This document shows positions 8,053 to 64,000 of a DNA stretch of 64,000 bases, piece after piece (position 1 is the first letter of the stretch; each line of letters opens with the position of its first letter). The notes below the pieces were generated by a model. That model did not search any database. It saw only the letters and a list, made by a program, of their open reading frames with translations, and was not told where the DNA came from. The translations under genes and the position numbers were made by a program. Source of the DNA: a virus; the IMG/VR virus record IMGVR_UViG_3300017605_000956, positions 14,479-78,478 of that record. One strand, written 5' to 3'.

Positions 8053-8167
8053 CGCGTCCACTCGCTCCCCACGTTCGACCCCCACAATAGATGGGGGCGA
8101 ATGGGTGGGGGGCGCGATGGGTGCGCGGGGGTTGTCCCCGCGACGTGAATGTGAGGAGGTCCCAGAT

Positions 8168-9229
8168 ATGTTGAGCGTGACAAGTCCACAGTATCAGCGG
8201 ATTCTGCGTACCGCTTTGGCGGCGCGGTACAAGTCGGGCAACGGAGCCTTCAACGGCTCGATCATGTTGCTGGGCGACACGGGCATCGGGAAGACCGATT
8301 CGACGGAGCACGCCTTCGACGGCGTTCTCTGCCCCCGCTGCCAGAAGCACGACGTGATCGTCCTGCCGTTCTATCTCTCGCAGATGGCGACGGAGGACAT
8401 CAAGGGCCTGTACATCTACTCCCCGCAGCACGACAAGGTGAAGCTCCACCCGAACCCCGACTTCCAGCTCGACGAAGAGTGCCCGCGCGTCTACTTCCTC
8501 GACGAGTTCACGACGGTCGAGCGTCCGATGCAGAAGTCCTCGCTCGAGTTCACCCTGAAGCATTCGATCGGCGGCACGAAGCTCCCGAAGGGGTCGATCG
8601 TGGTTCTGGGCGGCAACCGGGTCGAAGACGGCGCGGACGTCGAAGACATGGTGCGCCCCCAGCGGACGCGCATGACCTTCCTCCAGTTCGAGTTCTCGTC
8701 GGAGGCGTGGTTCGACTGGGCGCTGAAGAAGGGCATCCACCCCTACGTGATCTCCTTCCTCCACAACAAGGAGTCGATGATCTACAAGCCCGACGTCAAC
8801 GCGCAGCACGGCGAGCCGCTCCCCCGCACCTGGGAGAGGACGTCGGAGGTCCTGCACACGTTCGATCAGGCCGACTGGGAACCGCTCGTGAACGGCACGA
8901 TCGGGGACGGCGCGGCGACCGAGTTCATGGCGTGGACCGCGACGGCCGGAACGCTGATGCCGCTCGTCGACCGGATCATCGCTGGCGAGAACATCGCGGC
9001 GCCGGAGCTGTCCGCGCAGTTCTTCATCTCGGGCGTCCTGGTGGACCGCTTCGTGAAGAACGCGAAGCTGGCGGAGCGCCTGTGCCAGTACGCGATCTGG
9101 TCGGCTGACAAGAACCCGGAGGCCGCGGCGGTGATGGTGAAGGACTCCACTCGCGTCGCGAAAGACAAGATCACCGTGGCGCCCTCGTGGAAGAAGACCG
9201 TGGCCCGCCTGGCGGACTACGTGGTCTAG
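8168..9229 (+). CDS. MoxR-family AAA+ ATPase
   Basis: Walker A GDTGIGKT, Walker B YFLDE, GGNR sensor I, PRTW sensor II; RBS GAGGAGG; adjacent VWA gene. Confidence 0.9.
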   Translation: MLSVTSPQYQRILRTALAARYKSGNGAFNGSIMLLGDTGIGKTDSTEHAFDGVLCPRCQKHDVIVLPFYLSQMATEDIKGLYIYSPQHDKVKLHPNPDFQLDEECPRVYFLDEFTTVERPMQKSSLEFTLKHSIGGTKLPKGSIVVLGGNRVEDGADVEDMVRPQRTRMTFLQFEFSSEAWFDWALKKGIHPYVISFLHNKESMIYKPDVNAQHGEPLPRTWERTSEVLHTFDQADWEPLVNGTIGDGAATEFMAWTATAGTLMPLVDRIIAGENIAAPELSAQFFISGVLVDRFVKNAKLAERLCQYAIWSADKNPEAAAVMVKDSTRVAKDKITVAPSWKKTVARLADYVV

Positions 9230-14469: not shown

Positions 14470-14971
14470 CGCCGCTCTTGAATTCGCCAAGGGCTTCACG
14501 GTCCTCGTGGCGCGGGAGGCGCTGCGGCAGGGCCGCAAGAGAGTCCTGAACCCGGCGAAGTTCGAGAAGTGGGCGCGCAGCGCGATCCGGTCGGGCGGTG
14601 GGGACCCCGACCGGATCGGGGAGGCCGTCGGAAGGCGGCTTCACTGGATGGTATTCCCTCAGAAGGCGAAGTGGCAGCAGGACGTGGAGTACTGCATCCG
14701 TCGCGGGCGTTCGTTCGCCCGCCGGCATAAGGTGCTGATTGCCGAGCAGGTGCTGACGGGAGACGCGGAGAGGACCCAACTTGAGATGGCAGCGGAAGAG
14801 ATGGTCCGCATCCTTGGGCCGAAGAAGGTCTTGGACCTTCTCGGCAAAGGGAAAGAGAGTAGGGCGTGCGTAAGTCGAAGTCGGAAGCGTTCGAGGATCT
14901 CGCGGCGCCGCTTGGCGAGTTCGTGTTCGAGCTGCGGGCGTCGTGGGGGACGAAAGCGATCGGCACGGTGA
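14447..14971 (+). CDS. hypothetical protein with AExxLT motif
   Basis: ..FARRHKVLIAEQVLT; 3' end overlaps the next gene. Confidence 0.55.
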   Translation: MKTRKPRNAALEFAKGFTVLVAREALRQGRKRVLNPAKFEKWARSAIRSGGGDPDRIGEAVGRRLHWMVFPQKAKWQQDVEYCIRRGRSFARRHKVLIAEQVLTGDAERTQLEMAAEEMVRILGPKKVLDLLGKGKESRACVSRSRKRSRISRRRLASSCSSCGRRGGRKRSAR

Positions 14972-22065: not shown

Positions 22066-22280
22066 CGTTCTCGAGGCCGCTTCCGGGGATCGTGAACATC
22101 AACAGGGAGCCTGAAGCCGTGGCCGTACTCGGGGTCGAGTCCGGGTCGAGCGGAGGCATCGCGATCGTGTGCCTCAACGGCAAGGGCCAGATATTCACGA
22201 TGCCGCCCGGCTCGGTGAAGGTGCTGGTGGATAAAGAGCTCCGCGAGTGTATCGCGGAAGCAGAGTTGCAGAAACCCTAG
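22062..22280 (+). CDS. small beta protein with C-terminal AExxL motif
   Basis: ..LRECIAEAELQKP*. Confidence 0.65.
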   Translation: MTFSRPLPGIVNINREPEAVAVLGVESGSSGGIAIVCLNGKGQIFTMPPGSVKVLVDKELRECIAEAELQKP

Positions 22281-22297
22281 TTGGAGGAGGTGGAAGC

Positions 22298-23050
22298 GTG
22301 GATTTCGACACGTACCTGTCCCAGTGGACCTTCTTGAAGACGTTCGTGAAGGGTCCTCCGGGCAGCGGCAAGACGTTCTTTGCCGCTCAGATGACGCACC
22401 TGTGGAGGACGCTCTACATCGACGTGGAAGGCGGCCTGTTCAGCGCCTTCCCCACGGTGAAGCGGGACAACATCGAAGTCCGGCTGATCCGTGAGCCCGA
22501 GCCGAAAGAGTTCTTCGAGAAGCTCGGGGACGCGGTGGGCGAGGCCGAGAGCGGGAAGTACGAAGCCGTGGTGGTCGACTCCCTGACCGAGATTTCGGGC
22601 AGGATGGAAGACGACTACGCGCAGAAGTCCGCGAGCGGCAAGCTCGAGTTCGGGGCCTGGTACGAGCTCCAGGAGCGGCTCCGTCGTATGTGCCGCCGGC
22701 TCAAGGACCTGAACTGCCACGTCTGCGTCACGAGCCTGACGAAGCCCCAGGGCGGGGACAAGGCGGAAGCGGCGTTCGAGCCGGTGTTCCCCGGCCAGAG
22801 CGCGACCGTCATCCCCAGCTTCTTCGACACCGTCGGGCTCATGCGGAAGTCGTCGACCAAGACCGGGTCCGAGTTCGTCTTCACGACGGACGGCCCCGCG
22901 ATCTACCAGGTGCGCGATCGGTACCGGGCTCTCCGGCCGGAGGAGCGCGTGTCCGAGAAGGACCCGCTCGCGGTCTGGAAGAAGCTCAAGGACGGCATCG
23001 TCTCGATGGCGAGCAGCGGAAAGGAGGCCCAGACGGCAAGCGCGAAATAG
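22298..23050 (+). CDS. AAA_24 / Sak4-like P-loop ATPase (single-strand annealing)
   Basis: Walker A GPPGSGKT, IDVEGG, Walker B VVVDS; lies between exonuclease and SSB. Confidence 0.85.
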   Translation: MDFDTYLSQWTFLKTFVKGPPGSGKTFFAAQMTHLWRTLYIDVEGGLFSAFPTVKRDNIEVRLIREPEPKEFFEKLGDAVGEAESGKYEAVVVDSLTEISGRMEDDYAQKSASGKLEFGAWYELQERLRRMCRRLKDLNCHVCVTSLTKPQGGDKAEAAFEPVFPGQSATVIPSFFDTVGLMRKSSTKTGSEFVFTTDGPAIYQVRDRYRALRPEERVSEKDPLAVWKKLKDGIVSMASSGKEAQTASAK

Positions 23051-42880: not shown

Positions 42881-44623
42881 ATGGCAGGCGCAAAGCCGAA
42901 CGACATCGAGAAGGCCCAGATCCTCGACATGGTGAAGGGGAACTACCGCATCGAGGAGATCCAGCAAAAGTTCCCGCACGTCGATGGCCGGTCGATCTCC
43001 GGAATCCACATGAGGCACAACCGGAGAGCCCCCAGCCCGGAAACCCTGCACTCCGCGACCCTGGCGCCGCCCGGCTCGCCCGCGGCCGCCATGGCACCCC
43101 CGATGGCCCCCGCGCCCGTCGGCAACCGCACTCCCCAGGACGAGGCCACCGAGTCGACCGGTTTCACCCCCGCGGCCCAGACCGTCCACACCCCCCAGGG
43201 CTTCAAGCCCGGCTACCGCGAGTACTTCGTCGTCAAGAAGCTCGACCCGCCCGGCGACGGCGTCATGAAGACCGAGTACCCGCCCTTCGGCATCCACGAG
43301 CTGATGGACCGCTACTCGAGCGGCGACTACGAGATCCAGCACTACCGCGAGGGCCGGCTGTTCAACACCTACCGTGAGAAGATCGCGACGAAGGCCACGT
43401 CGCTGATCTCGTCCGCTCCTGGCGTGCAGCGCGAGGCGACGCGCCCGGAGAGCCCGACCGATGCGCTGGTGAAGACGATCGACATCTACCACAAGATCCA
43501 CACCGAGGGTCGCAGCGAGGCCGCGGCGTCCCGCCGTGACGAGGTCATCGCGAAATCCGAGGAGACGAAGGCCAAGGCCCAGGTCGAGACCGCGGCCACC
43601 GTCGGACTGATCGAGCTCGTCAAGACGATGGGCACCCCGAAGCCCACCGGCAACGAGGGCTCCATCGACCGGCTCTTCGCGCTGATGCAGGAGGACCGGA
43701 AGAACGCCGAGTCGCGCATGAAGACCGAGATCGAGATGATGCGCGAGCGGTCGAAGCTCGACCTCGAGGCCGCGCGCGAGCAGGCGAAGCTCGAGCGCCA
43801 GAAGGCGCAGGACGAAGCCGCCGAGCGCCTCCAGCGCGAGCGCGACTTCATGGGCAAGCTCCAGGAGCTCGACAAGGACCGCCAGGCTCTCTGGAAGGAG
43901 AGCTACGACAAGATGACCGAGGAACTCCGCGGGATGCAGGAGGCCCTCAGTCGCGAGCTCGACGAAAAGAAGAAGTGGTTCGACTCCTACTTCGAGATCC
44001 AGAAGGCACACACCGACGAGCTGATCGCCATCAAGAAGTCCGCCGGGACCGGCGCCGACTCCCTCAAGATGGCCGAGATCGTGCGCGACGGCTTCGTCCA
44101 GGGGCTCGATCGCGTGGGCGCCCGCATCGACATGATGGTCGACAAGGGCGTGATCCCCGGCAGCGTGAAGAATCCGGGCAACGGCAAGAAACTGGGACAC
44201 ACGGACGGTGGGACCACGCCGGCGGCCGCGGGTGGAGCCGCAGCTCCGGCAGCGAAGGAGGAGAAAGCCGTGCTCACGAAGGAAGGAATCCAGAAGGCGC
44301 TCAAGGAGCCGTGGTTCCTGGACCTGCAGGATGAGATCGTCAGGACCGTGAAGAAGCGCAAGGCGGCGACCAATCCGCGCCTCAAGCCTCACGGGACGCT
44401 GCTGGGCCAGGCGTTCATCGACAACATGAACGAGGACGTGTCCCTGCGGAAGTATATGCACTTCCTGATCTCGCGGAACTGGCAGGAGATCCTGGCCGAG
44501 GTCGGCGAAGGCTTCAAGCCGGAGTACGCAGAGGTCTTCCGCGATCCCGAGGCCGAGGTGTGGTTCGGTGAGTTCCAGGAGTTCCTCAGCGCCGCCTGGA
44601 ACGCCTCGATTGGGGTGAAATAA
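42881..44623 (+). CDS. large coiled-coil protein (putative morphogenesis/scaffold)
   Basis: RBS GGAGG; long E/K/R heptad region; first gene of the C-rich block. Confidence 0.8.
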   Translation: MAGAKPNDIEKAQILDMVKGNYRIEEIQQKFPHVDGRSISGIHMRHNRRAPSPETLHSATLAPPGSPAAAMAPPMAPAPVGNRTPQDEATESTGFTPAAQTVHTPQGFKPGYREYFVVKKLDPPGDGVMKTEYPPFGIHELMDRYSSGDYEIQHYREGRLFNTYREKIATKATSLISSAPGVQREATRPESPTDALVKTIDIYHKIHTEGRSEAAASRRDEVIAKSEETKAKAQVETAATVGLIELVKTMGTPKPTGNEGSIDRLFALMQEDRKNAESRMKTEIEMMRERSKLDLEAAREQAKLERQKAQDEAAERLQRERDFMGKLQELDKDRQALWKESYDKMTEELRGMQEALSRELDEKKKWFDSYFEIQKAHTDELIAIKKSAGTGADSLKMAEIVRDGFVQGLDRVGARIDMMVDKGVIPGSVKNPGNGKKLGHTDGGTTPAAAGGAAAPAAKEEKAVLTKEGIQKALKEPWFLDLQDEIVRTVKKRKAATNPRLKPHGTLLGQAFIDNMNEDVSLRKYMHFLISRNWQEILAEVGEGFKPEYAEVFRDPEAEVWFGEFQEFLSAAWNASIGVK

Positions 44624-45159: not shown

Positions 45160-45921
45160 ATGTCGAATCCCATCTCTCGCCGCCGCCAGTCCCAGCTCGA
45201 CGCGCTGAACGATGCGCCGCCCGGCCGCGGCGAGTCGATCCAGCGCCCCATGTCCGCCGGCGCCGACGGGATTCGCAAGCTCGAGGTCCCGAAGATGGTG
45301 CAGTACGTCCAGACCTTCAACTCGGATCCGAAGGTTGTCACCCTCGCGCAGCGCGTCATCCAGCTCTGCGAGGCGAAGGACAAGATGTGCGAGATGAACA
45401 CCCTGTTCCAGTGGACGAAGAACCACTTCCGCTACGTCAACGATCCGATCGACAAGGAAGCGATCAAGACCGCGCCGCGCATGATTGGCGAGATCATGAC
45501 GCCGCCCGAGGTGATCGAGCACATCCTGGGACCCGAGCTCATCACGCAGATGAATGGCTTCGGCCTGGGTCACGGCTCGCTGCTCGAGGGCGACCCGCGC
45601 AAGCGTCTCGTCCTCTGCATGGGCTGCTTCGATCAGCGCCTCTCCGGCCCGGTCCACTCGAAGGGCTCCGGTGACTGCGACGACGGCGCGACGTTCCTGG
45701 CGACGCTGCTCGCGGCTGTCGGCATCACGCCGCGCTTCCGCTTTGGCGGCCAGGAAGACGATTCCATGTCCGACGGCTGCAATTACCACCACGTCTGGGT
45801 GCAGGGCCAGGACGACAAGGGCGACTGGCACGACATGGACGTCACCGAGAAACGCTCGAAGCTCGGCTGGTTCTACGAAGGCTTCTCCTGCACCGGTGTT
45901 GCGGCCATCTTCGCGGAGTAG
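45160..45921 (+). CDS. transglutaminase-like cysteine protease
   Basis: FRYVNDP, GDCDD (Cys), HHVW (His), MDVT (Asp) triad. Confidence 0.88.
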   Translation: MSNPISRRRQSQLDALNDAPPGRGESIQRPMSAGADGIRKLEVPKMVQYVQTFNSDPKVVTLAQRVIQLCEAKDKMCEMNTLFQWTKNHFRYVNDPIDKEAIKTAPRMIGEIMTPPEVIEHILGPELITQMNGFGLGHGSLLEGDPRKRLVLCMGCFDQRLSGPVHSKGSGDCDDGATFLATLLAAVGITPRFRFGGQEDDSMSDGCNYHHVWVQGQDDKGDWHDMDVTEKRSKLGWFYEGFSCTGVAAIFAE

Positions 45922-46136: not shown

Positions 46137-46186
46137 CCGTCTCGATGAGGTCGTCACACCCGAGCCGCCGAAATAAGGAGATGCCC

Positions 46187-46780
46187 ATGAGCTCGAAGTG
46201 CCCGCCGGTCACCGTCAACCTCGACGAAGTCGTCGACACCGTCAAGGCGAAGATCCTGAGCGAGCACCCCGAGCTGACCTCCAAGAAGGTCGACGGGAAC
46301 GTCCACAGCGTCGGCATCCGCGGCCTCGGCGAGATCCGTCTCGTCGAGCCCACCGTCGATCCGAGCCAGTTCGTGATCGGCTTCGTGTCGATCCCGAGCG
46401 TCGTCAACATGGCGACGAAGCTGATGCAGGTCGGCGTCATCTTCCCGAAGGTCGACCTCGCGCTCTCGCGCGGCATCTTCGCGGGCGTCACGCTCGCGGG
46501 CACCCTCATCTCCGGCGGCAAGTCCTTTCTCCTCGGCGCCTTCCTCGGCCAGGTCCCCTCGACGATCGACGCGCTCGCGGACATCGCGGTCGCGGCCATC
46601 ACGAAGGCCAAGGCAGGCTCGGCGGCGGTCCAGGGCATCGACCTGGGCGGCCTGGGCGCGACGCAGGAGGAGGAGCTGCTGAAGCTCCGCGCCGACCTGA
46701 TGCAGCTCCAGGGCATCGGGCGCGACGGCGGCGAGCAGATGTCGGGCCACCGCGGCGGCTCGGTCGTGTTCCACCGGTAA
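46187..46780 (+). CDS. putative virion membrane/core protein with hydrophobic-Gly motifs
   Basis: RBS AAGGAG; hydrophobic core; IRGLG, VQGIDLGGLG, LQGIG, MSG. Confidence 0.7.
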   Translation: MSSKCPPVTVNLDEVVDTVKAKILSEHPELTSKKVDGNVHSVGIRGLGEIRLVEPTVDPSQFVIGFVSIPSVVNMATKLMQVGVIFPKVDLALSRGIFAGVTLAGTLISGGKSFLLGAFLGQVPSTIDALADIAVAAITKAKAGSAAVQGIDLGGLGATQEEELLKLRADLMQLQGIGRDGGEQMSGHRGGSVVFHR

Positions 46781-55481: not shown

Positions 55482-55853
55482 GTGGAAAACCTGCCCATCA
55501 AGACCTTCGACGTCCTCTCGTTCACCGGCCTGATCGCGCTCCTGCCCTTCCTCCTCGAGGGGGTCAAGAAGCTCGCCCCCGGCTTCATCAGCGGGAAGGA
55601 GAACTGGCTCTGCGTGATCCTGGCCTATGCCATCGGCATCCCGGTCAAGATCGCCACCCCCACCGCCTACAACGGGCTGATCGGCCCGATGGGCTGGATC
55701 GTCACGATCATCGGCCTTTTCCTCACCGCGATCGCCGCGATGATGGTCCACGACAAGGTCCTGGCCGGAATGTTCGGCTGGGAGGACAAGGACGGCGCCC
55801 CGCCTAGTACCGGCGGCGGTCAGGGGGGTGCGAATCAGGGAGGTGGCGCGTGA
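55482..55853 (+). CDS. holin-like 3-TM protein
   Basis: LEGVKK after TM1; three hydrophobic segments. Confidence 0.65.
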   Translation: MENLPIKTFDVLSFTGLIALLPFLLEGVKKLAPGFISGKENWLCVILAYAIGIPVKIATPTAYNGLIGPMGWIVTIIGLFLTAIAAMMVHDKVLAGMFGWEDKDGAPPSTGGGQGGANQGGGA

Positions 55854-56119
55854 AGTCGATTTTCGGCCGGCTCCGTTCCCTCGTACTGCTCTTCATCGTG
55901 GCGGCGCTGTGCGCCGCCACGACCGGGTGCGCCCTGTTCAAGAGCCCTGACAAGGCATTCGTCACCGGGGTCAACGCCTACGCGGTGGACTCCGGGCTCC
56001 TCGACGAGTACGACAAGTACGTGGACGCCGACCCCAGCCTCAAGCCCGAGTCCAAGAAGATCCGCCACGACAGCGCCACGGGCCTTCGCAAGATCATCAA
56101 GGACGCTCAGGCTCGGTAG
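55850..56119 (+). CDS. small lipoprotein
   Basis: Signal peptide with lipobox-like TTGC. Confidence 0.65.
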   Translation: MKSIFGRLRSLVLLFIVAALCAATTGCALFKSPDKAFVTGVNAYAVDSGLLDEYDKYVDADPSLKPESKKIRHDSATGLRKIIKDAQAR

Positions 56120-56170
56120 CCTGCGATGTGCCAGGTTTGCGACGCTGAAGACCTTGAGGAGGCTCTGATC

Positions 56171-56509
56171 ATGCCGAATCCGTGGGACAAGCTCTCGGGC
56201 GAGCTGCTCGAAACCCTGAAGATCAGCGTCCACGACTTCATCGACACTGAGAAGCAGGAGGTCGTCGATTTCCTCCGCGAGAAGTCGGTGGAGATCGCCA
56301 AGCAGACCTGGGTGTCCCTCAACGGGACCGACGAAGAGCGGGCCGAGGCCATCGGCAACCTCCGCCACCTGAAGGCTCAGGTGGTGGGCCAGGCCGCGAG
56401 CATGGAGCTCGTGGCGACGACGGCCGCGGTGAAGCTGCTCGGGAAGGTCTTCGAGGTCGTGGTGAACGTCGCGCTCCAGTATGGCGTGAAACTGCTGGTC
56501 GCACTCTAG
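56171..56509 (+). CDS. helical hypothetical protein
   Basis: RBS GAGGAGG before ATG 56171. Confidence 0.65.
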   Translation: MPNPWDKLSGELLETLKISVHDFIDTEKQEVVDFLREKSVEIAKQTWVSLNGTDEERAEAIGNLRHLKAQVVGQAASMELVATTAAVKLLGKVFEVVVNVALQYGVKLLVAL

Positions 56510-56611
56510 CGAAAACGCGCTAGAATGCCCCCAGATCGACGCATTGGCGAGGGGTGGTAGCGCGAGTCGTTGTGGCTCGAATTGGCGCGACTGGTGGCGA
56601 CTGGACGAGTG

Positions 56612-56642
56612 TTCGCATGGGGGGCGCAGCCCCCCATGCGAA
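56612..56642. repeat. perfect hairpin with GCA triloop
   Basis: TTCGCATGGGGGGC-GCA-GCCCCCCATGCGAA. Confidence 0.9.
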
Positions 56643-56660
56643 GAAGGCAGGAAGGAACGA

Positions 56661-58010
56661 ATGCCGAGCCAGCTTCTTGAACTGGGCGCAACGCAGCTCC
56701 TCGAGCTGGGCAACACCCGGCGCATCTACATGGGCGACACGCCCATGCCCCAGACCGTCAAGGCGGTCTACGACTTCGTCAATATCTTCGAGGACCCGCT
56801 CGCCGCGACCGGGATCAGCGACGACGACCTGACCCCCGAGGCGCTCTCGATCGTCAACCGGATCCGGACCGTCAACAAGCGCGTCCGGAACAGTCTCGAT
56901 TCCACCCTTTCGCTCGGAGACATCTCGGGGTACGACGACGTCCAGAACCTCGCGTACCAGCTCAACGGCCTCTACCTGGGCAAGAGCTTCTTCAAGCGCG
57001 CGGTCAAGGCGGTGAAGCGGATCCACAAGACCGTCGCGAAGAAGATCGTGAACGTGGTGAAGTCGCCGGCGTTCCTCTCGGTGGCGGCGCTGGTCGTGAA
57101 CGTGATCCCCGGCGTGGGCCAGGCGGCCTCCGTGGCGCTGGCGGCGGCCGCCGCGGCGCGCAAGGTGTACGCCCAGAAGGTCGACGAGAAGAAGGCCAAG
57201 CGGGCGCAGAACGCCTTCAACGCCCAGCAGCAGGCCGAGTTCCTGAAGGAAGTGAAGGACTACAATCGGAAGACGCAGGAGTACTACGAGGCGGCGAACT
57301 ACCCGATCCCCAACGGCCAGCTCATCGACGCGAACGGCAACCCGACGAGCGACCCGAAGCAGGCCCCCGGAATCAAGTACCCGATCAACATCAACGGGAC
57401 GATCTACCAGGACCCGAACCCGGTCGCTACCCCCGGCCCCGGAGTCGTGACCCAGCCCAACCCGGCGACCCCCGGCGCCGTCTCGGTGTCTCCGATTCCG
57501 GTGCAGGCTCCTCCGACCCAGCAGCAGATCACGCAGGCGGCCGCGCTGCCGGCGGCCATGGCCCTCACCAACGGCCAGGGCGCGTGGCAGGCGAACGCGA
57601 TCCTGCACTCCTTTGACATGGGGACGCAGCAGCAGATCGCGGGCGAGGTCTCCGAGATCCAGAAGTTCGTGAACGACCCGAGCTTCCGCCCGACGTCCGT
57701 GAAGGCCATCGGGCAGTTCGTGGCGATGTCCGAGTTCGACCGTGGCGCCGGCACGAACATCATGACCGAGGAGCAGCACGCTCTGGCCGATGCGGTGAAG
57801 GCTCACGCGACCCCCGAAGTGTGGAAGGCGATCGAAGCGGGCCGTCAGGCTCTGGTCACGTCCGCCGCGATCGACGGCAAGGATGCCGCCGCAGCCATCC
57901 AGGCTGCCATCGACAAGGGGGCGAGCTCTGGCGTCCCCTGGACCTACATCCTGGTGGGCCTCGGGGTTGCGGCCGCGGGCGGAGTGGGTTATGCTCTTGC
58001 GCGGAGATAA
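56661..58010 (+). CDS. C-terminally membrane-anchored virion protein with internal basic amphipathic helix
   Basis: LYLG-KSFFKRAVKAVKRIHK..IPGVG; C-terminal TM followed by RR. Confidence 0.75.
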   Translation: MPSQLLELGATQLLELGNTRRIYMGDTPMPQTVKAVYDFVNIFEDPLAATGISDDDLTPEALSIVNRIRTVNKRVRNSLDSTLSLGDISGYDDVQNLAYQLNGLYLGKSFFKRAVKAVKRIHKTVAKKIVNVVKSPAFLSVAALVVNVIPGVGQAASVALAAAAAARKVYAQKVDEKKAKRAQNAFNAQQQAEFLKEVKDYNRKTQEYYEAANYPIPNGQLIDANGNPTSDPKQAPGIKYPININGTIYQDPNPVATPGPGVVTQPNPATPGAVSVSPIPVQAPPTQQQITQAAALPAAMALTNGQGAWQANAILHSFDMGTQQQIAGEVSEIQKFVNDPSFRPTSVKAIGQFVAMSEFDRGAGTNIMTEEQHALADAVKAHATPEVWKAIEAGRQALVTSAAIDGKDAAAAIQAAIDKGASSGVPWTYILVGLGVAAAGGVGYALARR

Positions 58011-58013
58011 ACG

Positions 58014-59072
58014 ATGAGCATCATGGTCGTTCCCAACCGGATCCGCGACCTGGGTCGCTTCACCATGGGCGCGGAACCCGCGTCGATGATGAATCCCGCC
58101 GACCTCAAGATCCTGATGCTCCTGTCGACGAAGGACCTCCTGCGCCTCGGGCAGATGATCTCGGCAGGCCGGAAGATCGTGTCGCAGAAGATGGGCGGCC
58201 TGATCGGGCAGCTCAAGCCCGCTCTCGACTTCCTGGGCTCGGTTCGTTCCACCCTCTCGATCCTCGGGATGAAAGCGGATGAGTCGACGCTCGAGGCGAC
58301 GGCCGAACAGGCCAGCGTCTTCAAGGCCTCGAGCGATGCCGTGACGCTGATCACCGACCAGGCCGACATCGTCCTCGACGGCATCGCTCGGCTGGTCAGC
58401 AGCCGCGAGCAGAGCTGGCAGGTCGGCTACACGAGGTACACGAGCTTCGAGGGCGTCCAGGTCGTCGGCAGCGGCGTCCAGGGCGGCATGAAGCTGGTGT
58501 CGCTCGACTTCCCCGGCCAGAGCCTCTGGGACTGCGTGGAGTACCTCTACGACAATCGTGGTCTGGTCGACACCGTGAAGAAGGCCTCGGCCGAAGCCGG
58601 TCTGAGCGGCCTGCCGCTGGTGATCGGCATCGTCGTGGTCATCCTGGCGCTGATCCTCGCGATCTACAATCTCGCGAAGTACCTCATGGACTCCAAGAGC
58701 CGCGAGGCCGAGAAGCTGCGCGACGCGAAGCGCAAGAACGTCGAGACGCGGGTCCTGAACCAGGTGGTCATCGACCAGCGCCAGTCGGAGCTCAACCGGA
58801 TCCTGAACACGCCCCCCGAAGAGCGGACGCAGTCCGACGCCGGCCGGATCGCGGCCCTCAAGGTGGAGCTCAACTCGCTCACCGCGGCGAACGCCGGCCT
58901 CGAGGCTCAGGACAACGAGATCGACAAGAGCCTCGAGCAGGCCAAGAACGCCGATGACATTGTCGAGAGGCTGAACAAGGCGGTGGGCTCCGGGATGACC
59001 GTCCTGACCTACGGCCTGGCGGGGCTCGGCCTCCTGCTCGCGGGTTACGTGACGTGGAAGGTGATCGCGTGA
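58014..59072 (+). CDS. two-TM coiled-coil virion membrane protein
   Basis: TM LPLVIGIVVVILALILAIY after GLSG; C-terminal TM. Confidence 0.75.
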   Translation: MSIMVVPNRIRDLGRFTMGAEPASMMNPADLKILMLLSTKDLLRLGQMISAGRKIVSQKMGGLIGQLKPALDFLGSVRSTLSILGMKADESTLEATAEQASVFKASSDAVTLITDQADIVLDGIARLVSSREQSWQVGYTRYTSFEGVQVVGSGVQGGMKLVSLDFPGQSLWDCVEYLYDNRGLVDTVKKASAEAGLSGLPLVIGIVVVILALILAIYNLAKYLMDSKSREAEKLRDAKRKNVETRVLNQVVIDQRQSELNRILNTPPEERTQSDAGRIAALKVELNSLTAANAGLEAQDNEIDKSLEQAKNADDIVERLNKAVGSGMTVLTYGLAGLGLLLAGYVTWKVIA

Positions 59073-60288: not shown

Positions 60289-61830
60289 ATGAGCCGGAAC
60301 GCCCACTTCTCGCTGCTCGGCAACATGGGCACGTCCTATGCGCCCGACGCGGAAGGCTCCGCCGAAGGAGACATCCTCGGCGTCTCGGCTTACGACCTCG
60401 CCGGTCTGCGCGAGGACGATGCTTCGGTGCGTCTCGGCGTCAGCGCCTACGACCTGGCCGGTCTCCGCGAGGACGACGCGGCCGTTCGCATGGGCGTCTC
60501 GGCGTATGACCTCGCCGGGCTCCGGGAGGACGACGCCGAGGTTCGGATGGGCGTCTCCGCCTACGATCTCGCGGGCCTCCGCGAGGACGATGCGGCGGTG
60601 CGCCTGGGGCTCACCGACTTCGACGGCGCCAGCGGCAGCGCCGAGGGCTCGGCGGCCGGTCACCGGGTCGCCCAGATGGGCCTGCTCGTCTCCGACGGCC
60701 GCATGGGCGGGATGGTCGAGGACCACTACGACATCCGCATGGGCGTGTCGGCCTACGACCTCGCGGGGCTGCGCGAAGACGACGCGGCGGTCCGCATGGG
60801 CGTGAGCGCCTACGATCTCGCCGGCCTGCGGGAAGATGACGCGGCCGTCCGAATGGGCGACTCGCGCTACGGCGCCCGCTACGGCACCCAGTACCGCCTC
60901 CTGCGGTACAAGGGCGACTACGGCACCGAGTACACCCGGCTGCCGGGCCGCCGCCTGGCGAAGGGCAAGAAGCGTCGCATGGCCGACGTCGACTCCATGA
61001 GCGCCGAGGCCATGGCGATCGAGCAGTACGGCCAGATCGCGGGCGTGACCAACACGTTCCGGATGGGCTACATCCTGCGCGGCCTGCGCGAGGATGACGC
61101 CTCCGTCCGGATGGGCGTGTCCGCCTATGACCTGGCGGGCCTCCGGGAAGACGACGCCGCCGTGCGTATGGGCACGGCCTACGCCGACGATGCCACGGGC
61201 AGCGCCGAAGACCCCTCGGGCCGCGCGGGCCTGGGGGTTTCGGCCTACGACCTGGGCCGCCGGCGCGCGTACCCCTACAGCGTCGACGGCGCGGAAGTGA
61301 ACCCGCCCGCGATGCTGGCGGCCGATGGCTTCCACGAGCGGTTCCCCGTCCGCCTCCGCGGGCTGGGCCGGATCAACCTGGGCAACATCGCCTGGACCGA
61401 GGCCATGCCCCGGCTCCAGACCGCGATCGCGCAGGAAGCGAAGCTCTACGCCCGCGTCCTGCGGCTCAACGACACCTCGAAGGCCGCGATCATGACCCAG
61501 GTCGCGAACCTGAACGCGCTCGACAAGGGCCAGCTCTTCAACGGGCAGCTCACCGTCTACCTCAACGGCGGCGAAGCCCACTGGCTCGCTCACGAGGGGA
61601 CGCAGCGCCGGCTGTTCGCCACGGAGAAGATCATCCCCACGGTCGACGCGATGCTCACGGCCTACGAGCGGGGCGCCACCCCGGACGAGGCCCTGAAGGC
61701 GGCTCTCGCCAACGTCGACAAGCGGATCGACGACCTGAAGAGCGGTTTCATGCAGTACGCCCTGCCCATCGGCGGCGGAGTCGTCGCGGCGGGCATTATC
61801 ACCGCTCTGGTCCTGAGCGCCTCCAAGTAG
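60289..61830 (+). CDS. 19-aa repeat, polyprotein-like membrane-anchored protein
   Basis: 7 full VSAYDLAGLREDDAxVR(M/L)G units plus partials; C-terminal TM. Confidence 0.85.
   Translation: MSRNAHFSLLGNMGTSYAPDAEGSAEGDILGVSAYDLAGLREDDASVRLGVSAYDLAGLREDDAAVRMGVSAYDLAGLREDDAEVRMGVSAYDLAGLREDDAAVRLGLTDFDGASGSAEGSAAGHRVAQMGLLVSDGRMGGMVEDHYDIRMGVSAYDLAGLREDDAAVRMGVSAYDLAGLREDDAAVRMGDSRYGARYGTQYRLLRYKGDYGTEYTRLPGRRLAKGKKRRMADVDSMSAEAMAIEQYGQIAGVTNTFRMGYILRGLREDDASVRMGVSAYDLAGLREDDAAVRMGTAYADDATGSAEDPSGRAGLGVSAYDLGRRRAYPYSVDGAEVNPPAMLAADGFHERFPVRLRGLGRINLGNIAWTEAMPRLQTAIAQEAKLYARVLRLNDTSKAAIMTQVANLNALDKGQLFNGQLTVYLNGGEAHWLAHEGTQRRLFATEKIIPTVDAMLTAYERGATPDEALKAALANVDKRIDDLKSGFMQYALPIGGGVVAAGIITALVLSASK
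60382..61257 (+). repeat. 57-bp coding tandem repeats
   Basis: 4 copies 60382-60609, 2 copies 60745-60858, 1 copy 61117-61173, partials at 61081 and 61237. Confidence 0.9.
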
Positions 61831-62890: not shown

Positions 62891-62956
62891 GCCCCCCAGG
62901 GCGGCTTACTACAACGGGTAGGCCGGGGCCACCTGAGGATGGAGGAAGCTGGCAGG

Positions 62957-63604
62957 ATGGCGGACATCTTCAACGTCCACCGCGGCGGCTACCGCGCAGC
63001 GAAGGGAGAGTCGAAGTCCTCGCAGGACAAGGTCCTCCAGCGCACCGAGCTGCAGGCCCTTCTCGACGCTCCCAAGAGCGATCACCGTCGGTACGGCTAC
63101 GACGCCTACGACCTCTTCGCGATCGCCGGCAACTTCGGGCTGCGGTGCAGCGAAGTTCTCAGCCTCGAGTTCGACGACTTCTCTTCGATCCGCTCGGGGT
63201 ACTTCCGCGTCTCGACGCTCAAGCGCCGGAAGAACCTCCAGGACCGCGTCTACACCGGAGACGCTGGCCGCAAGCTGCTCGAGAGCACGGTGCTCCCCTC
63301 GCGCCGGCGCGTCGTCGGACCGAAGGGCTCGATCCTCTTCCCGTTCGGCGCGCGCACCGCGCGCTACCTCTTCGCCTACTACGCCGAGAAGGCCGGGATC
63401 TCGCCCAACGTTTCGTTCCACGCGCTCCGCCACACCGCGGCTCGAATGCTGCTGATGTCGATGCGGAAGAGCGAGCTCGCCAACGAGGCGATGAACATCG
63501 TGACCTGCTTCCTCCGCCACAAGCCGTCCTCCACGCAGATTTACACGGAGCCCTCCGCCGAGGAGATGATCCAGGCGATGAATCTGCGTGGAGTCGTGCA
63601 GTGA
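62957..63604 (+). CDS. short tyrosine recombinase (catalytic domain only)
   Basis: GLRCSE (R), TLKRR (K), HALRH (HxxR), LRH, TQIY (Y); RBS GGAGG. Confidence 0.9.
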   Translation: MADIFNVHRGGYRAAKGESKSSQDKVLQRTELQALLDAPKSDHRRYGYDAYDLFAIAGNFGLRCSEVLSLEFDDFSSIRSGYFRVSTLKRRKNLQDRVYTGDAGRKLLESTVLPSRRRVVGPKGSILFPFGARTARYLFAYYAEKAGISPNVSFHALRHTAARMLLMSMRKSELANEAMNIVTCFLRHKPSSTQIYTEPSAEEMIQAMNLRGVVQ

Positions 63605-64000
63605 TCAAGGTTCTCTACGGCGCCCTGAAGTACCCCCAGCTCTCCGAGACCTACGTCACCGCCGATGTCGCCTTCATGCTCCGCACCGGGGTCGACGTGA
63701 GGGTCTGGAGCCCGATGGTCCGGACGAGCGAGGGGGAGAACCAGGTCCCGATCTACCGGGAAGGCCTTCTGGACGCCGTTCGCGCCTTCAACCCCGACAT
63801 CATCCACGTCCACCACATGACCTCGGCCCTCACGGTGTCGCGCTCGCTCGAGGGGATGAAGATCCCGATGACCGTGCGCGCCCACTCGTTCGAGTTCACC
63901 GACTCGATCGTAGCTCAGACCCTCGCGATCCCGCAGCTCGAGCGGCTCTACCTGTTCCCCCACCTGGCGCGTCTCGTGAACCACCCCAAGGTCGTCGCGC
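63601..64000 (+). CDS. GT4-like glycosyltransferase, 3'-truncated
   Basis: YPQLSETYV N-terminal motif, PDIIHVHH; open to the window end. Confidence 0.7.
   Translation, partial: MIKVLYGALKYPQLSETYVTADVAFMLRTGVDVRVWSPMVRTSEGENQVPIYREGLLDAVRAFNPDIIHVHHMTSALTVSRSLEGMKIPMTVRAHSFEFTDSIVAQTLAIPQLERLYLFPHLARLVNHPKVVA

Follow-up and report, generated by a model that had tools for sequence, protein, structure and literature searches.

A cationic amphipathic helix joined to a hydrophobic hairpin forms a candidate membrane-surface module in a late protein of a probably tailless, lipid-containing virus

What is the role of a strongly basic amphipathic helix that follows directly on a Leu-Gly (LG) pair in the interior of a large membrane protein? 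The question is raised by the 449-residue protein P0001, encoded in a stretch of 64,000 nucleotides (the window) that spans positions 14,479 to 78,478 of the IMG/VR virus record IMGVR_UViG_3300017605_000956. How tailless lipid-containing phages shape their membranes and pass DNA across an envelope is known for a few model viruses only, and a protein of this kind could reveal whether bacterial viruses use protease-primed membrane-active proteins like those of adenoviruses and enveloped viruses. A preliminary description of the locus had likened it to adenovirus protein VI (pVI) and had pointed to a protease-activated protein for membrane penetration or DNA delivery. We find that P0001 is a late-class, single-copy membrane protein carrying a helix-hairpin module. 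The reading that we favour, with moderate confidence, is that the module belongs to a virion membrane protein and inserts constitutively at the membrane interface, with K108-S135 as its helix on the membrane surface.

The helix is where it had been described. Bases 56982-57122 encode K108-Q154 (56982 opens K108 and 57122 closes Q154), and L106-G107 immediately precedes K108. The 28 residues K108-S135 include ten Lys or Arg and no acidic residue, giving a net charge of +10, and 46% of them are hydrophobic. A low hydrophobic moment would have spoken against the proposal; the moment is 0.54 (Fauchere-Pliska) or 0.65 (Eisenberg), compared with 0.18 +/- 0.09 for shuffled versions of the segment (z = 3.8), of which 3 in 10,000 reach the observed value. 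It is maximal at 100 degrees per residue, and the segment is the most amphipathic stretch within the protein. The helical wheel is cleanly two-faced, with 11 of the 13 hydrophobic residues lying no more than 90 degrees from the moment and all ten Lys and Arg on the opposite side. The other features singled out earlier are likewise borne out. The hydrophobic stretch after the helix (residues 136-166) is uncharged, a hydrophobic helix at residues 425-447 followed by RR provides the C-terminal membrane anchor, and residues 1-110 contain five [LIM]G sites where 1.8 are expected (p ~0.01). These are LLELG (twice), YMG, SLG and YLG, and all except YMG are kept in close homologues.

The arrangement is conserved. 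Among 16 close homologues (42-100% identity) and seven more distant metagenome loci carrying the gene (27-76% identity over the best aligned segment), the helix, the LG pair and the hydrophobic stretch are all kept. The common layout consists of a leader, an acidic domain, the LG-K junction, the cationic helix and the hairpin motif, followed by a Pro-rich linker, a helical C-terminal domain (C-domain), a C-terminal helix and a basic tail. The best-conserved part of the family, VVKSPAFL...N.IPG.GQ.AS...AAA.R..Y, adjoins the cationic helix, and N147, I149, P150, G153 and Q154 are invariant in the homologue alignment. The AlphaFold2 model of P0001 has a helix at 136-148, a turn and a long helix at 153-211. 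Its overall predicted local distance difference test (pLDDT) score is 59.7, and its most confident part is the C-terminal part of the second basic helix. Within the cationic helix, H122 (57024-57026) is invariant across the 16 close homologues and lies on the hydrophobic side, at an angle of 48 degrees to the moment; this position might respond to pH, and the residue is not kept in distant relatives.

A profile search of 1.84 billion representative proteins extended the family to 118 proteins (clusters). The distant matches cover only profile positions ~105-260, which take in the helix together with the hydrophobic segment and the basic region after it, a region rich in K, R, Q and A in distant members. 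We based superfamily statistics on the 81 members having the turn motif and a Lys-rich upstream stretch. In 89% of these the cationic stretch is significantly amphipathic relative to shuffles, with a median moment of 0.62 and a median charge of +9. The uncharged segment measures 30-32 residues (interquartile range) and has the turn, [IVLFM]PG[VILAFM]G, at its centre between arms of 14 and 13 residues. Both 15-residue flanks of the hairpin are basic (+5 and +4), reaching at least +3 on both sides in 77% of members, and the last six residues of the protein hold at least two K/R in 60%. The junction can also be recognized: the residue preceding the first Lys is Gly in 45 of the 81 and the one before it is L, I or F in 51, the residues ahead of this hydrophobic-Gly pair are usually acidic or Gly, and the junction is kept at 15-30% identity. 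P0001 has the complete set, with its cationic amphipathic stretch, residues 136-166 with the turn I149-G153, L106-G107 directly before K108, and 425-447 followed by RR (Table 1). It is the sole carrier of the module in its 78-kb genome, and related loci likewise have one copy each, to which the locus L008 adds a non-cationic tandem paralogue.

What precedes the module varies greatly. Minimal relatives of 121-170 residues consist of the module and an acidic leader of 13-18 residues, and in relatives of 460-630 residues the module is preceded by a transglutaminase-core domain that Pfam confirms and in which Cys, His and Asp are invariant. In P0050, P0057 and P0063 a transglutaminase-fold domain is fused ~60-70 residues upstream of the junction.

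Table 1. Features of the gene for P0001 and of other genes discussed in the text. Positions refer to the window except where prefixed L002; residue numbers are those of P0001.
Feature	Position	Strand	Basis
Whole gene, 449-residue protein P0001	56661-58010	+	Open reading frame (ORF), GC content at third codon positions (GC3) 0.89, exact database gene call
N-terminal leader, residues 1-24, two LLELG[AN]T repeats	56661-56732	+	1-4 (L/I)(E/Q)(L/M)G copies in relatives
Acidic N-terminal domain, residues 25-107, net charge -6	56733-56981	+	Charge count
L106-G107 junction closing the acidic N-terminal domain	56976-56981	+	Junction logo across the superfamily
Cationic amphipathic helix K108-S135	56982-57065	+	Charge, moment, helical wheel
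Uncharged Ala/Val/Gly-rich segment, residues 136-166, predicted helix-turn-helix	57066-57158	+	Conservation, AlphaFold2
Central turn I149-P-G-V-G-Q154 inside the uncharged segment	57105-57122	+	
Second basic helix, residues 167-211, 11 K/R, net charge +4	57159-57293	+	AlphaFold2, charge count
Small beta unit and Pro-rich linker (212-285), then conserved helical C-domain (286-424)	57294-57932	+	
C-terminal hydrophobic helix 425-447 and RR tail	57933-58007	+	Hydrophobicity
Transglutaminase-fold Cys-His-Asp enzyme, candidate protease for Gly sites	45160-45921	+	Pfam Transglut_core, E = 5.8e-7
Jelly-roll protein, candidate capsid protein, 197 residues	46883-47476	+	GC3 0.97, AlphaFold2, fold search
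Membrane protein, about three hydrophobic helices, Gly-rich tail	55482-55853		
89-residue lipoprotein with lipobox LCAATTGC	55850-56119		
GLG-type motif loci (examples)	L002:12995-13312, L002:13323-13817, L002:14356-14598		
GLG-type motif loci (examples)	46145-46780, 58014-59072, 60289-61830		

The module family is undescribed, and its physical elements are of known kinds. No significant Pfam or PHROG family was found for the module itself among superfamily members. P0001 gave only a sub-threshold Ldh_2 match in Pfam-A, none in PHROGs, and nothing below E = 0.05 in a profile search of PDB sequences. A fold search with its model returned generic helical hairpins only (Z < 7) and no known fold, and in the ESM Atlas no match scored 0.9 or more, with structural TM-scores below 0.3. 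A tblastn search of 50,697 phage records found no match to P0001 or to a minimal relative. No IMG/VR relatives beyond this record were found by protein pattern or by the back-translated pattern NVIPGVGQ[AV]A, which also had 0 matches in 185,579 reference genomes. The looser pattern PGVGQ[AV]AS[AV]A gave 53 matches in the reference genomes, all of them off-frame or unrelated chance occurrences in high-GC DNA and none with a Lys-rich upstream stretch, so that these searches pointed to no host. An integrated copy of the module was not found in any of the 185,579 genomes, despite the presence of a tyrosine recombinase gene in the virus.

How might such a module work? In the reading that we favour, the 28-residue Lys-rich amphipathic helix would lie flat on an anionic lipid surface. 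The following 31-32-residue uncharged Ala/Val/Gly segment would double back on itself at the turn N-x-I-P-G-V-G-Q, which hardly varies, to give two arms of 13-14 residues each, and the hairpin would be wedged into one leaflet, with the second basic helix also resting on the lipid surface. Because the arms are too short for two bilayer crossings and both flanks are positive, a one-leaflet hairpin is the most likely topology; the alternative is a single kinked span of 32 residues with the helix as a positive-inside determinant. Under either topology the helix would be a tethered element that sits constitutively at the interface. With the help of the C-terminal helix and its RR tail, the module would fix the protein to the viral membrane, probably bending or perturbing it, and would hold the variable N-terminal part there. 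That part is the LLELG leader and acidic domain in P0001, a transglutaminase-fold enzyme in distant relatives, and an acidic leader only in minimal relatives. Such an anchoring function would require no cleavage.

Several observations support the interpretation as a membrane-surface anchor. Amphipathicity and charge are kept while the sequence drifts, the form of the module is preserved under very different N-terminal parts, and each genome has the module once, in a conserved order of genes for membrane proteins. Other observations weigh against it. The acidic, Gly-hydrophobic-Gly junction is left unaccounted for by pure anchoring, and the conserved basic tail suggests that the C-terminus is cytoplasmic, a position that agrees better with an odd number of preceding membrane crossings and with the single kinked span. 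AlphaFold2 pLDDT is only 40-54 in the helix and the hairpin, and this poor confidence leaves sequence geometry as the sole basis of the hairpin. Both hydrophobic segments are moderate, at ~1.6-1.75 on the Kyte-Doolittle scale, and moderate hydrophobicity is also typical of segments that insert upon a trigger. Finally, the location in the virion is one that we infer, and the tailless context described below carries the caveat that a packaging ATPase was not found.

A second reading, which we consider rather unlikely, is that of a protease-activated entry protein. Here the transglutaminase-fold enzyme would cut after G107, and perhaps after the LLELG leaders, and so strip off the acidic N-terminal part by which the cationic helix is masked. 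The N-terminus thus exposed, comprising the helix and the fusion-peptide-like Ala/Gly-rich segment, would insert into the envelope of the host as the genome is delivered, the C-terminal anchor remaining in the viral membrane. Consistent with this, the hydrophobic-Gly junction persists at the low identities given above with acidic residues or Gly before it and Lys directly after, and in the minimal relatives the acidic leader stands directly before the module. The presumed enzyme is fused upstream of the junction in three relatives and is encoded by a separate gene here. The motif [RKED]GLG[EKQR]I is found five times in the proteome of this virus where 0.04 copies are expected, in most cases at the N-terminus of a membrane protein, and an 861-residue protein of the related locus L010 joins a transglutaminase-like domain to seven GLG motifs that delimit repeats. 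In adenovirus, pVI is cut at residue 33, directly upstream of its lytic helix 34-54 (10.1101/857581). Yet the Gly ahead of the helix may be a mere helix cap or hinge, the generic dipeptide [LIMF]G is not enriched in the proteome (z = -1.6), the site in P0001 is Y-L-G and not G-L-G, and the role of the enzyme could instead lie in cell-wall hydrolysis or in cross-linking. Nor would cleavage yield the free, releasable peptide that had been envisaged: with the helix continuous with the hydrophobic hairpin and a further anchor at the C-terminus, a cut at G107 would leave the helix tethered to the membrane. Moreover, uncleaved recombinant pVI is already lytic in vitro (10.1101/857581), so that even in the model system cleavage is not the source of the activity. 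Judged from sequence, activation at G107 is a possible event for which P0001 is a candidate only. Somewhat more doubtful again is the wider proposal that the acidic-leader/Gly junction, the helix and the PG-hairpin form the effector of a maturation pathway driven by a transglutaminase-fold protease in a large undescribed lineage of tailless bacterial viruses that contain membranes, the cut unmasking a membrane-inserting N-terminus that drives envelope fusion or penetration.

The remaining explanations fare worse. A lysis protein, whose helix and hydrophobic segments would disrupt or fuse the host envelope when infection ends, as holins, spanins or disruptins do, is improbable. It would have natural partners in the three-helix membrane protein and the lipoprotein encoded upstream, after which the gene stands in conserved synteny, its composition is like that of a cationic membrane-active peptide, and no endolysin, holin or spanin family was recognized elsewhere in the genome. 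Against this, with its 449 residues and its large, conserved C-domain outside the membrane, P0001 does not resemble known holins, spanins or small cationic lysis peptides. The protein has no PHROGs match, and the enzyme domain joined to the module in distant relatives is of a virion type, like that of gp34 of the phage SSIP-1, which is annotated as structural. Even less probable is genome binding, in which the two Lys-rich helices would face the packaged DNA, neutralizing it or holding it to the viral membrane. Strongly basic flanks on either side of the hairpin are indeed a feature of the family, but the strict hydrophobic periodicity of 100 degrees suits a helix on a lipid surface and is not needed for DNA binding. 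If the membrane is cell-derived and lies inside the capsid, flanks that face the cytoplasm would moreover come to face the capsid and not the DNA. A compositional accident, that is, a Lys-rich linker with no specific role, is hardly credible: the cationic stretch does vary widely in sequence and in length (~12 to 50 residues), but its amphipathic phase is kept against shuffles in the great majority of members noted above and its position relative to the hairpin is fixed.

Comparison with known systems helps to place the protein. P0001 resembles pVI in that an amphipathic helix begins right after a Gly-containing site following an N-terminal pro-part, and in that a virus-encoded cysteine enzyme, here a candidate of the transglutaminase fold, is available. 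The likeness that had been suggested does not extend to sequence, as there is no sequence or profile similarity to pVI in Pfam-A, PHROGs or PDB sequences. Adenain, the adenovirus protease, has the consensus (M/I/L)XGG↓X or (M/I/L)XGX↓G. The site in P0001, Q-L-N-G-L-Y-L-G↓K, departs from it in having Leu and not Gly two residues before the putative cut, and the candidate enzyme differs from adenain in being of the transglutaminase fold. Furthermore, pVI is a soluble protein of the capsid interior without membrane anchors and its helix is not polycationic, whereas the helix of P0001 has its charge of +10 and is tethered to a hairpin and a C-terminal anchor. P0001 is not a member of the pVI family, and neither is it an antimicrobial peptide gene. 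The likeness to antimicrobial peptides that had been noted stands on physico-chemical grounds, with the length of 28 residues, the charge, the hydrophobic fraction and the moment in or near the range of cationic alpha-helical antimicrobial and disruptin-type lysis peptides; it ends there, the helix being an internal segment (108-135) of a large protein, contiguous with the hairpin, and not a small precursor that is released.

By analogy, P0001 would work most like a viral membrane anchor of the hairpin type and could work like a protease-primed entry protein. A passage in PMC10013923, citing Erlandson 2016, describes vaccinia A17 as a protein with short hydrophobic hairpins that bends membranes and tethers the jelly-roll D13 lattice to the viral membrane. 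Compared by layout, P0001 in the favoured reading would share the short-armed hairpin design of A17, of reticulon-type proteins and of other monotopic membrane-shaping proteins; A17 differs in having two hairpins and no long polycationic helix, in belonging to a eukaryotic virus, and in the fold of its protease. During maturation A17 is shortened at its ends by a viral cysteine protease that cuts at Ala-Gly sites. Proteases with a transglutaminase-like fold also exist: the LapG-type cysteine proteinases cut at di-alanine. The candidate enzyme is, by description, like LapG in its fold and Cys-His-Asp residues and, if it cuts P0001, would share with it a membrane-associated substrate and a small-residue site, the chemistry of the site being different. 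With class I fusion proteins, which combine cleavage N-terminal to a hydrophobic peptide, a trimeric heptad-repeat core and a C-terminal membrane anchor, the likeness is in layout only (Ala/Gly-rich segment, long helix 153-211, C-terminal anchor), and unlike these P0001 has no N-terminal signal peptide. If protease maturation were true, the system would be a prokaryotic-virus counterpart of pVI activation and of class I priming that evolved with an unrelated protease. The module as defined here is widespread, with 118 representative clusters, and has a clear geometry, keeps its junction and is linked genetically to an enzyme of the transglutaminase fold; were it an anchor only, it would still be a useful marker in metagenomes for an overlooked group of viruses.

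The virus itself is probably tailless, contains a membrane or lipid, and infects bacteria. This suggestion comes from its gene content, namely a gp34-like protein of the transglutaminase type, a candidate jelly-roll capsid protein, and the absence of HK97 capsid, terminase, portal, FtsK-like and A32-like genes from protein scans and six-frame family searches. Six-frame searches with PF04665 and PF01580 detected no packaging ATPase, although a very divergent one could escape them; the only P-loop proteins are a phrog_1297 ATPase (8105-9229), which adjoins a DUF2201 protein, and a Sak4-like annealing protein (22247-23050). The protein encoded at 45160-45921 resembles the SSIP-1 virion protein gp34 (pairwise E = 1e-7; tblastn E = 4.5e-5), an annotated structural protein with a transglutaminase-like Cys-His-Asp domain and a C-terminal membrane helix. 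Salisaeta phage SSIP-1 is presented in a passage of PMC6356626 as tailless, with an internal membrane, and is said there to encode two types of capsid protein. The transglutaminase-like gene is the only one detectably shared: SSIP-1 has an annotated ATPase (gp40) and a 44-kb genome, compared with 78 kb here, and we did not find the helix-hairpin module in it. In PRD1-type phages membrane proteins remodel the internal membrane, and the vesicle serves as a genome-delivery device, as a passage in PMC3782422 puts it. The present virus shares with these phages a block of small late membrane proteins; P0001 itself has no sequence similarity to any PHROG family.

The candidate capsid gene is the most codon-biased gene of the genome, and its product is highly conserved. 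Its 52 homologues come from contigs as long as 84 kb. Several of these contigs measure 72-84 kb, an indication that genome size is consistent within the virus group. The AlphaFold2 model of the protein is a beta-sandwich (pLDDT 75.6). The best fold match is the SPV1 capsid protein (Z 7.1, root-mean-square deviation (rmsd) 4.8, 150 residues aligned), followed by the HHIV-2 capsid protein (Z 7.0, rmsd 4.4, 118 aligned), both from viruses with an internal membrane, and then P23-77 VP17 (Z 5.7) and PRD1 P3 (Z 5.5), all scores in the middling range.

The record is a virus contig of 78,478 bp with nearly all genes on one strand. Its 'direct terminal repeat' is exactly 141 bp long (L002:1-141, identical to window positions 63860-64000). 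Since this length equals the largest k-mer of a common assembler, the genome is most likely a circular assembly of ~78.3 kb, and the overlap does not represent true virion end repeats. The early part encodes ParB, a primase-helicase, C5 and other methylases, a PD-(D/E)XK exonuclease, the annealing protein, the phrog_1297 ATPase with its DUF2201 neighbour, an M48 peptidase and several glycosyltransferases. The late block (~45-62 kb of the window) has the highest GC3 and contains the transglutaminase-fold protein, small beta-rich proteins, a Calx-beta/propeller protein and about a dozen membrane proteins. With its GC3 of 0.89, the gene for P0001 fits this block and not the early one, and the same value supports the plus frame as the coding frame. 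The product begins with MPSQLLELG and is identical over all 449 residues to the database gene call. An antisense ORF at 56520-57806 was rejected as an artefact of DNA with 65% GC. No DNA-level tandem repeats were detected in the gene.

The neighbourhood of the gene is conserved in the order glycosyltransferase, three-helix membrane protein, lipoprotein, 127-residue protein and P0001, followed by a Lys-rich protein, two membrane proteins and a tyrosine recombinase. Three genes (55482-56509) always lie directly upstream; the third of them encodes the 127-residue protein, which has a hydrophobic C-terminus. They might form a holin/spanin-like set or be partners of P0001. At the other end, the tyrosine recombinase gene (62939-63604; Phage_integrase, E = 1.7e-12) closes the membrane-protein block and is kept in related loci. 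The locus L008 has two paralogues of P0001 in tandem (L008:4948-5829 and L008:5837-7045). The first keeps the leader, the turn (as IPKIG) and the C-domain, and the helix before its hairpin has a net charge of 0 and is not Lys-rich; P0029 and P0037 are of the same type.

Motifs of the leader class are enriched in the proteome of the virus. The looser form of the GLG motif, [GDE]LG[EKQRAN][ITF], occurs 12 times against 1.4 expected, and most copies of the GLG type lie within the first 20 residues of membrane proteins, which makes the motif look like a shared N-terminal tag or cut site. In the locus L010 (IMGVR_UViG_3300044714_000134), the 861-residue protein (L010:9899-12484) has an N-terminal transglutaminase-like domain followed by its seven GLG motifs, where 0.4 are expected. 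Between the motifs lie Ala-rich repeats, and a membrane helix comes after them, in a layout that looks like that of a polyprotein. The 614-residue protein encoded upstream of the transglutaminase-like gene in L010 has no detectable similarity to the product of 42881-44623. In the window, 60289-61830 encodes a 513-residue protein with about seven near-identical acidic units of ~20 residues (GVSAYDLAGLREDDAAVRMG), each closing with R-[ML]-G. This protein, which also has an RGLGRI motif and a C-terminal membrane helix, is kept in all related loci.

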